Shown here: piece after piece, positions 1-293 of the stretch | How the letters are laid out: each line of letters opens with the position of its first letter | How positions within the stretch are numbered: the stretch's first letter is position 1 | NCBI RefSeq assembly: GCF_022846255.1 | Contig: NZ_AP025682.1 | Length of the DNA: 64,000 nt | Origin: Escherichia coli | Lineage (GTDB): Bacteria > Pseudomonadota > Gammaproteobacteria > Enterobacterales > Enterobacteriaceae | Direction: 5' to 3' (one strand) | Notes under the pieces: model-generated | Databases searched by the model: none | The model's input: the letters and a program-made list of their open reading frames with translations, nothing else | What the model was told of the DNA's origin: nothing | Translations under genes and position numbers: made by a program

Positions 1-293
1 CACTGACTCAGACTAAAATAAGAGGCGGGTAGTCTAGTGCCGGGGCGCTCTCCCTGCAACCTTTACCCTCCTTGATGGATGACATAATCTATACACAAAA
101 TCATTCAAGATGCATCGAGATGGCAACTGAATGAGTCCCCAGGAGCTTACATTAAGTAAGTGACTGGGGTGAGTGACAAATCTGTCCGGAACAGATTTGA
201 ACACCGTGTAACGGTGGCCCGTAAGGGCGAGGCTCATGGATGAGCCGAGTAACTAGCAGCCAACGAAGAGGCAGTTTGAAGGATGAAGTGTAT

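Follow-up and report, generated by a model that had tools for sequence, protein, structure and literature searches.

The queA/acpH spacer of an Escherichia coli strain very probably holds a long-form ERIC/IRU repeat with an internal four-hairpin module

Organization of the queA/acpH spacer

In the stretch of Escherichia coli DNA analyzed here (64,000 nucleotides of contig NZ_AP025682.1, assembly GCF_022846255.1; referred to below, at its full length, as the window), the structured segment in front of acpH, positions 92–292, is with very high probability an ERIC/IRU element, and neither a dedicated riboswitch or leader nor a gene for an sRNA. The element is present in a long form that includes an internal module of 78 nt, predicted to fold into four hairpins. 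ERIC is already known as a family of small, non-autonomous mobile repeats in enteric bacteria, and there is nothing new in the identity of the element itself. In an annotation, this interval should be labeled as an ERIC/IRU repeat that contains an internal module; the label of a candidate riboswitch or sRNA would not suit it.

Positions 1–293 of the window represent all but 2 bp of the 295-bp queA/acpH spacer in the strain studied, and the first 400 bp are 100% identical to the corresponding sequence of E. coli SCU-111. Only positions 1–91 are the native part of this spacer, common to all E. coli. An earlier note on this DNA had placed an acpH leader in about the first 290 bp; its location in the spacer stands, with the start of acpH corrected to position 294 from about 291–293. 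With the assignment given above, the features of the region are as follows.

1..91, no strand: native queA/acpH divergent spacer; the queA ATG is 2 bp left of position 1, on the minus strand
90..91, no strand: TA dinucleotide at the left end of the element, a putative target-site copy; other ERIC copies also end TATAC..GTATA
92..292, plus strand: ERIC/IRU element including the internal module, TACAC...GTGTA, 201 bp; together with one TA it makes up the 203-bp length difference from the empty alleles
92..136, plus strand: ERIC left arm, pairing with the right arm in the fold (inverted-repeat search and predicted fold)
137..169, plus strand: ERIC central hairpin (ERIC1R complement at 131–152, ERIC2 at 154–175)
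177..254, plus strand: internal module, 78 nt, net +77 bp compared with the plain ERIC allele; hairpins at 177–199, 202–216, 217–228, and 231–246; end GAGTAACT
255..292, plus strand: ERIC right arm (predicted fold), holding the SD-like GAAGGA at 279–284, about 10 nt upstream of the acpH ATG
293..294, no strand: TA at the right flank (flank comparison); the acpH start codon begins with A294
294..875, plus strand: acpH (ACP phosphodiesterase), coding sequence for 193 aa; the RefSeq start is 294

Assignment to the ERIC/IRU family

Membership in the ERIC family rests on similarity to the ERIC primers and to other copies of the repeat and not on a curated model, Rfam being without an ERIC family. 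The ERIC1R primer is matched at 20 of 22 positions in the segment 131–152 and the ERIC2 primer at 21 of 22 in the segment 154–175, the two lying back-to-back in the center of the element; the text of both primers was confirmed in the literature. Elsewhere in the 64-kb window, the best match to these primers reaches 15 of 22 positions. The 128-bp core, taken without the module, occurs at 52,788 places in 5,425 of the 5,426 E. coli genomes searched, with a median of 10 places per genome, and its copies at other E. coli loci are mostly 80–90% identical. ERIC copies are also found in Klebsiella, Serratia, Brenneria, Pectobacterium, Sodalis, Salmonella, Citrobacter, and Yersinia, and the termini of the element, TATACAC...GTGTATA, match the TATACCC...GGGTATA ends of the ERICs of Klebsiella, Serratia, and Pectobacterium.

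Reviews describe ERIC as MITE-like and imperfectly palindromic, with a length of roughly 127 bp, TA at either terminus, and short terminal inverted repeats. Its copy number varies between strains, and 14 extra ERIC loci are reported for non-K-12 E. coli. The copy at acpH shares with ERIC/IRU (Sharples & Lloyd 1990, Hulton et al. 1991) the central inverted repeat matching ERIC1R and ERIC2, a palindrome of about 126–128 bp when the module is absent, TATAC...GTATA ends with TA flanks, an intergenic position, multiple copies, and polymorphism between strains. It is unlike them in the presence of the 78-nt module and in the overlap of its right end with the acpH start codon, while its arms are among the more divergent ones, with 80–90% identity to other E. 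coli copies.

A scan of window 1–1000 against Rfam at E values up to 10, in which an ERIC model could not appear, returned a sole weak match, that of the central hairpin (124–171) to the Vibrio antisense RNA V_AS5. At 18.2 bits against 96, with E = 0.8, this match is not significant and was rejected; ERIC-like repeats in Vibrio may be its cause.

Inverted repeats and predicted folding

Two short inverted repeats upstream of acpH had been quoted in the earlier note, and both are present, namely CCCCAGGAGCTTAC/GTAAGTGACTGGGG at 137–150/156–169 and GAGGCTCATGGATGAGCC at 229–246, the latter forming a hairpin in the predicted folds. There are more besides: a perfect 9-bp inverted pair at 177–185/191–199, CACCGT/ACGGTG within 202–216, and GCCC/GGGC within 217–228. 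An inverted-repeat search also finds the outer arms, 90–116 with 268–294, to be 74% complementary.

RNA folding, one of the checks proposed together with that description, yields structure far beyond the level of shuffled sequences. The predicted fold of window 88–297 has an energy of −84.4 kcal/mol, compared with a shuffle mean of −51.3 (z = −8.65, none of 200 shuffles being as good), and the opposite strand of the same interval gives z = −7.1; both strands fold well, as palindromic DNA does. The ERIC allele lacking the module, 126 bp plus TA, is an imperfect palindrome and folds into a single long hairpin (−50.1 kcal/mol, z = −7.0), whereas the 78-nt module alone forms four consecutive hairpins (z = −4.8). 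In the MFE structures of both the plain and the long alleles the outer stem joins 90–96 with 288–294.

Alleles of the spacer in E. coli

In the allele survey, a search with window 1–400 recovered the locus from 5,424 of 5,426 complete E. coli genomes, and three forms of the spacer were distinguished.

Empty site: spacer of 92 bp (K-12 type, e.g. K-12-like JME65), about 4,600 of 5,426 genomes
ERIC only (126 bp): spacer of 218 bp, e.g. FDAARGOS_1297, Nissle 1917, and ATCC 11775, about 680 of 5,426 genomes
ERIC plus module: spacer of 295 bp, e.g. SCU-111 and the window, about 140 of 5,426 genomes

An element is present at acpH in 821 of the 5,426 genomes and is absent from the spacer in about 85%. 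Polymorphism of presence and absence between strains is observed, as three alleles carrying no insert, ERIC, or ERIC with the module.

In the ERIC allele, TA directly precedes TACAC...GTGTA and TA directly follows it; the empty alleles read GA, not TA, at this point. All empty alleles have the sequence ...ATAATCGATG instead of ...ATAATCTATG, with CGATG corresponding to CTATG at the site. Positions 1–66 are invariant across the alleles inspected, and the differences between ERIC-bearing and empty alleles fall at about 67–91, approximately seven of them being clustered in the 25 bp left of the insertion site. Since GA and a differing left flank are found in every empty allele, duplication of a TA target is not demonstrated. 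None of the 5,424 genomes contains an empty site with an ERIC-type left flank, and the best match in a single piece is 96.8% identical. The haplotype bearing ERIC may be old or introgressed, and the diverged 25-bp left flank may reflect either such a haplotype or adaptation after the insertion.

When the two ERIC-bearing alleles are aligned, one extra G is found at the junction, and for this reason neither of them can have arisen from the other by a clean insertion or deletion. Conversion of the long allele into the plain one by slippage between GAGTGAC and GAGTAAC was considered and rejected, as the junction predicted by it, GAGTGACTAGCAGCC, is not the observed GAGTGAAGGCAGCC.

The internal module

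In the long allele the module follows GGGGTGAGTGA, which is a recurrent internal ERIC site. Well-folding inserts of about 70–80 bp at a defined internal site of ERIC have reportedly been described before. The insert in the acpH copy resembles what is reported for the interrupted or long ERICs of 1997 in its similar size, its location at a defined internal site, and its good folding. Folded interruptions within ERIC have long been known (Sharp 1997, 'Insertions within ERIC sequences'; Cromie, Collins & Leach 1997).

The combination of ERIC and module is not confined to acpH. It occurs as one piece of 205 bp upstream of ybtA on Salmonella plasmids, with matches over 80% or more of the query in 168 plasmid records, and it also adjoins pgi in one E. 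coli genome. On the plasmids (Salmonella IncC and IncFIB; L005 and L006 at 2001–2205), which carry a yersiniabactin locus, the 205-bp piece is located in the divergent ybtP/ybtA spacer of this locus, 38 bp in front of the ybtA start. The copy downstream of pgi (E. coli 38I23CPO002, L004 at 1418–1610) consists of a diverged ERIC with a module 77.5% identical to that in the window, and the similarity at its right end stops about 130 bp before an annotated gene of an IS66-family transposase.

A search of Enterobacterales species representatives with a degenerate pattern, derived from the 3' part of the module, identified 59 loci with the module, most of them inside ERIC and at the same site. At least three internal ERIC sites are used by the module, and in each of them it is found between ...GA and CAAA. 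For an analysis of covariation, 54 distinct copies of the module were aligned and the pairs of the four-hairpin structure were counted. Standard pairs are found in 93.1% of the cells, compared with 30–46% when the 3' partners are slid by 1–3 columns. Two-sided changes are present in 14 of the 25 pairs (125 cells), and all four stems show compensatory changes, with hairpins 1 and 2 and the inner pairs of hairpin 4 being free to vary and with those parts of hairpins 3 and 4 that are fixed by the search pattern contributing no covariation. None of 500 column shuffles reaches any of the observed covariation measures. Mismatches of the G:T and A:C types number 20 and 34, respectively, in the module copies and favor neither strand, so that the constraint on the module may be exerted at the level of either DNA hairpins or RNA.

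Two other proposals concerning the module were rejected. Binding of CsrA through GGA in the loops of hairpins 1 and 4 was dropped, as GGA in hairpin 4 is fixed by the search pattern and the consensus of RF02902 is without GGA at the loop of the fourth hairpin. A link of the module to phages was likewise abandoned, the only hits in the phage collection being Salmonella sequences, namely two genomic contigs included in it and some small records lacking annotation.

The module has the same order of four hairpins as the Rfam family RF02902 (AaHKsRNA22, Aggregatibacter sRNA 22), and shares with it the linkers ...UUUGAAC..., GGCCCc-loop-gGGGCGAG, and ...CGAGUA. It is unlike RF02902 in scoring below the gathering score of 39.8, in having a fourth hairpin that is shorter than in the model, and in being a cassette inside another repeat, not a free-standing gene. 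With an alignment along the full model and E below 1e-3, both the module and the tRNA-Ser-linked copy treated below are related to RF02902, but they are not members of this family.

That relationship speaks for an independent sRNA gene in the spacer, for example the module acting as an sRNA of the AaHKsRNA22 type; the possibility of a small RNA had also been raised in the earlier note. A focused search of window 168–263 matches the module to the whole RF02902 model with 29.1 bits (E = 3.5e-4), a copy linked to tRNA-Ser (L029) scores 34.5 bits, and the family was defined from an RNA-seq screen for sRNAs. Both scores, however, are below the gathering score, a simple consensus scan finds no promoter-like or terminator-like site nearby, and the counts of G:T and A:C mismatches lack the strand bias expected toward one selected RNA strand. 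Moreover, the module is embedded in a palindromic repeat, and the structures that had suggested a small RNA belong to this ERIC repeat. We consider an sRNA gene very improbable here.

Contexts of the module outside the acpH locus

Elements that can be described as double ERICs, about 280 bp long, carry a module in each arm, both in direct orientation (L058 at about 5430–5730; also L009, L014, L028, L061, and L064). In turn, five loci (L025, L046, L048, L051, and L036) consist of ERIC arms with one module and have no central ERIC hairpin; they look like products of a deletion of the stretch separating two modules.

The module is also found downstream of tRNA-Ser(GGA) in Enterobacter, Klebsiella, Raoultella, Pluralibacter, Citrobacter, and Atlantibacter. 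The tRNA-Ser(GGA) loci contain tandem RtT-like units, each closed by a copy of the 3' end of the tRNA together with a terminator (L029 at 2116–2420 and L030 at 836–1400, as well as L008, L022, L031, L040, L059, and L060). Two adjacent units in Enterobacter sp. JUb54 are nearly identical, with a module of about 76 nt in one and ATAG in the other. In Enterobacter and Klebsiella the module thus occurs in tandem units each ending with the 3' end of tRNA-Ser(GGA), an arrangement like that of tyrT and the RtT repeats (Rfam RF00391). The window differs in that such a tRNA-linked context is absent from it, and the RtT matches at the tRNA-Ser loci score 36.7 and 18.8 bits, below the threshold of 45.

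Module-like sequences outside both ERIC and tRNA-Ser contexts were observed at six loci (L016, L017, L021, L026, L034, and L050), among them divergent copies in a Halothiobacillus MAG and in unclassified gammaproteobacterial MAGs. At these loci the stems differ, and the linkers GAAC, GA, and GAGTAAC are kept.

Taken together, the tRNA-Ser-linked, double-ERIC, multi-site, and MAG contexts suggest that the module is gained or lost as a unit. We can speculate that it may be more than an insertion in ERIC, namely a discrete, self-contained, and orientation-specific cassette that is mobile or else is maintained by selection for a function of its structure, although we regard this proposal as tentative and the odds as being rather against it. 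A cassette shared with the tRNA-Ser repeats and with the Aggregatibacter sRNA family may help to explain the origin of the length variants of ERIC.

Relation of the element to acpH and queA

A dedicated, conserved cis-regulatory 5' leader of acpH, riboswitch- or attenuator-like, might be read from the strong structure predicted directly before the start codon and from the compensatory changes in the module hairpins. The polymorphism effectively refutes this reading, as the structure is absent from the spacer in about 4,600 of the 5,426 E. coli genomes; the same sequence family is located beside unrelated genes (ybtA, pgi, and many others), no Rfam cis-regulatory family is matched, and the covariation is among dispersed copies of the repeat and not among acpH orthologues. 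The probability of such a leader is minute. What stands of the "structured 5' leader" suggested earlier is true in a trivial sense, the element abutting the start codon, and the structure is neither conserved nor specific to the locus.

The weakest reading, that of an ordinary divergent queA/acpH promoter region with inverted repeats arising by chance, of which the earlier note had put forward the promoter region, is correct about the location in the divergent spacer and suits the native part, window 1–91, but it is refuted for 92–292, an inserted member of a dispersed repeat family that folds 8.7 sd better than shuffles, and can for practical purposes be set aside.

The in-frame upstream extension of acpH noted previously is real in the sense that the ORF list contains an ATG at 240, located in the module together with its fourth hairpin (229–246) and in frame with the start at 294, which extends acpH by 18 codons. 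This extension is entirely within the inserted DNA, and the same AcpH protein of 193 aa, WP_001009886.1, is annotated both in an element-bearing strain and in a strain that lacks the element. The extension is a by-product of the ERIC insertion, and it should not be called in annotations.

Reading the segment as an ERIC/IRU repeat, the arrangement at acpH would have been created by insertion of an ERIC copy at TA immediately before, and overlapping, the acpH start codon in a spacer that otherwise measures 92 bp. As nothing separates the element from the start codon, it must be part of every acpH mRNA initiated further upstream, and a transcript initiated in the native spacer (1–91) would have the entire element for its 5' untranslated region. 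A simple consensus scan of window 1–400 detected neither promoter-like nor terminator-like sites, and the same scan of the empty allele likewise returned nothing; the scans being empty for both alleles, they locate neither the acpH nor the queA promoter, and transcription of acpH could also start inside the ERIC element. Co-transcription of the element with acpH is probable, and the ribosome-binding region would then be partly buried by it. The RNA of the element is predicted to form a long stem that branches at the top (−84 kcal/mol), in which the stem would pair the A of AUG and most of the SD-like GAAGGA (279–284). With such pairing of the start region in the predicted fold, translation of acpH or the stability of its mRNA should be modulated, probably downwards. 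On the queA side, sequences upstream of about −90 of this gene would have been moved away by 126–203 bp.

ERICs of Yersinia are co-transcribed and alter the stability of mRNA in an orientation-dependent manner (De Gregorio et al. 2005, as relayed by reviews), and by analogy we infer that the element might have a comparable effect on acpH translation or mRNA stability. As far as the reviews convey that work, the elements are alike in being placed for co-transcription with a flanking gene and in forming an RNA hairpin, and are unlike in that the effect tested in Yersinia concerned genes upstream of a 3'-located ERIC and was exerted via an RNase E site. By contrast, the acpH element would lie in the 5' leader of the transcript, directly against the start codon. 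The three spacer alleles amount to a modest natural experiment, in which 0, 126, or 203 bp encoding a strongly folding RNA are placed against the start codon of acpH. For queA-tgt and the genes that follow it, the same insert is located upstream of their promoter region. A comparison of these alleles could show the effect of an ERIC in a 5' UTR on translation.

On the other side of acpH, between this gene and malZ, an island of low GC content (35–37%, compared with about 52% in the flanks) occupies window 896–2341 on the minus strand. It encodes a hypothetical protein of 481 aa with no credible match in Pfam. In strains of the K-12 type, as well as in some ERIC-bearing strains, malZ follows acpH directly. 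The island is found in 1,127 of the 5,426 E. coli genomes, O157:H7 included, and its distribution over these genomes indicates that it varies independently of the ERIC polymorphism.
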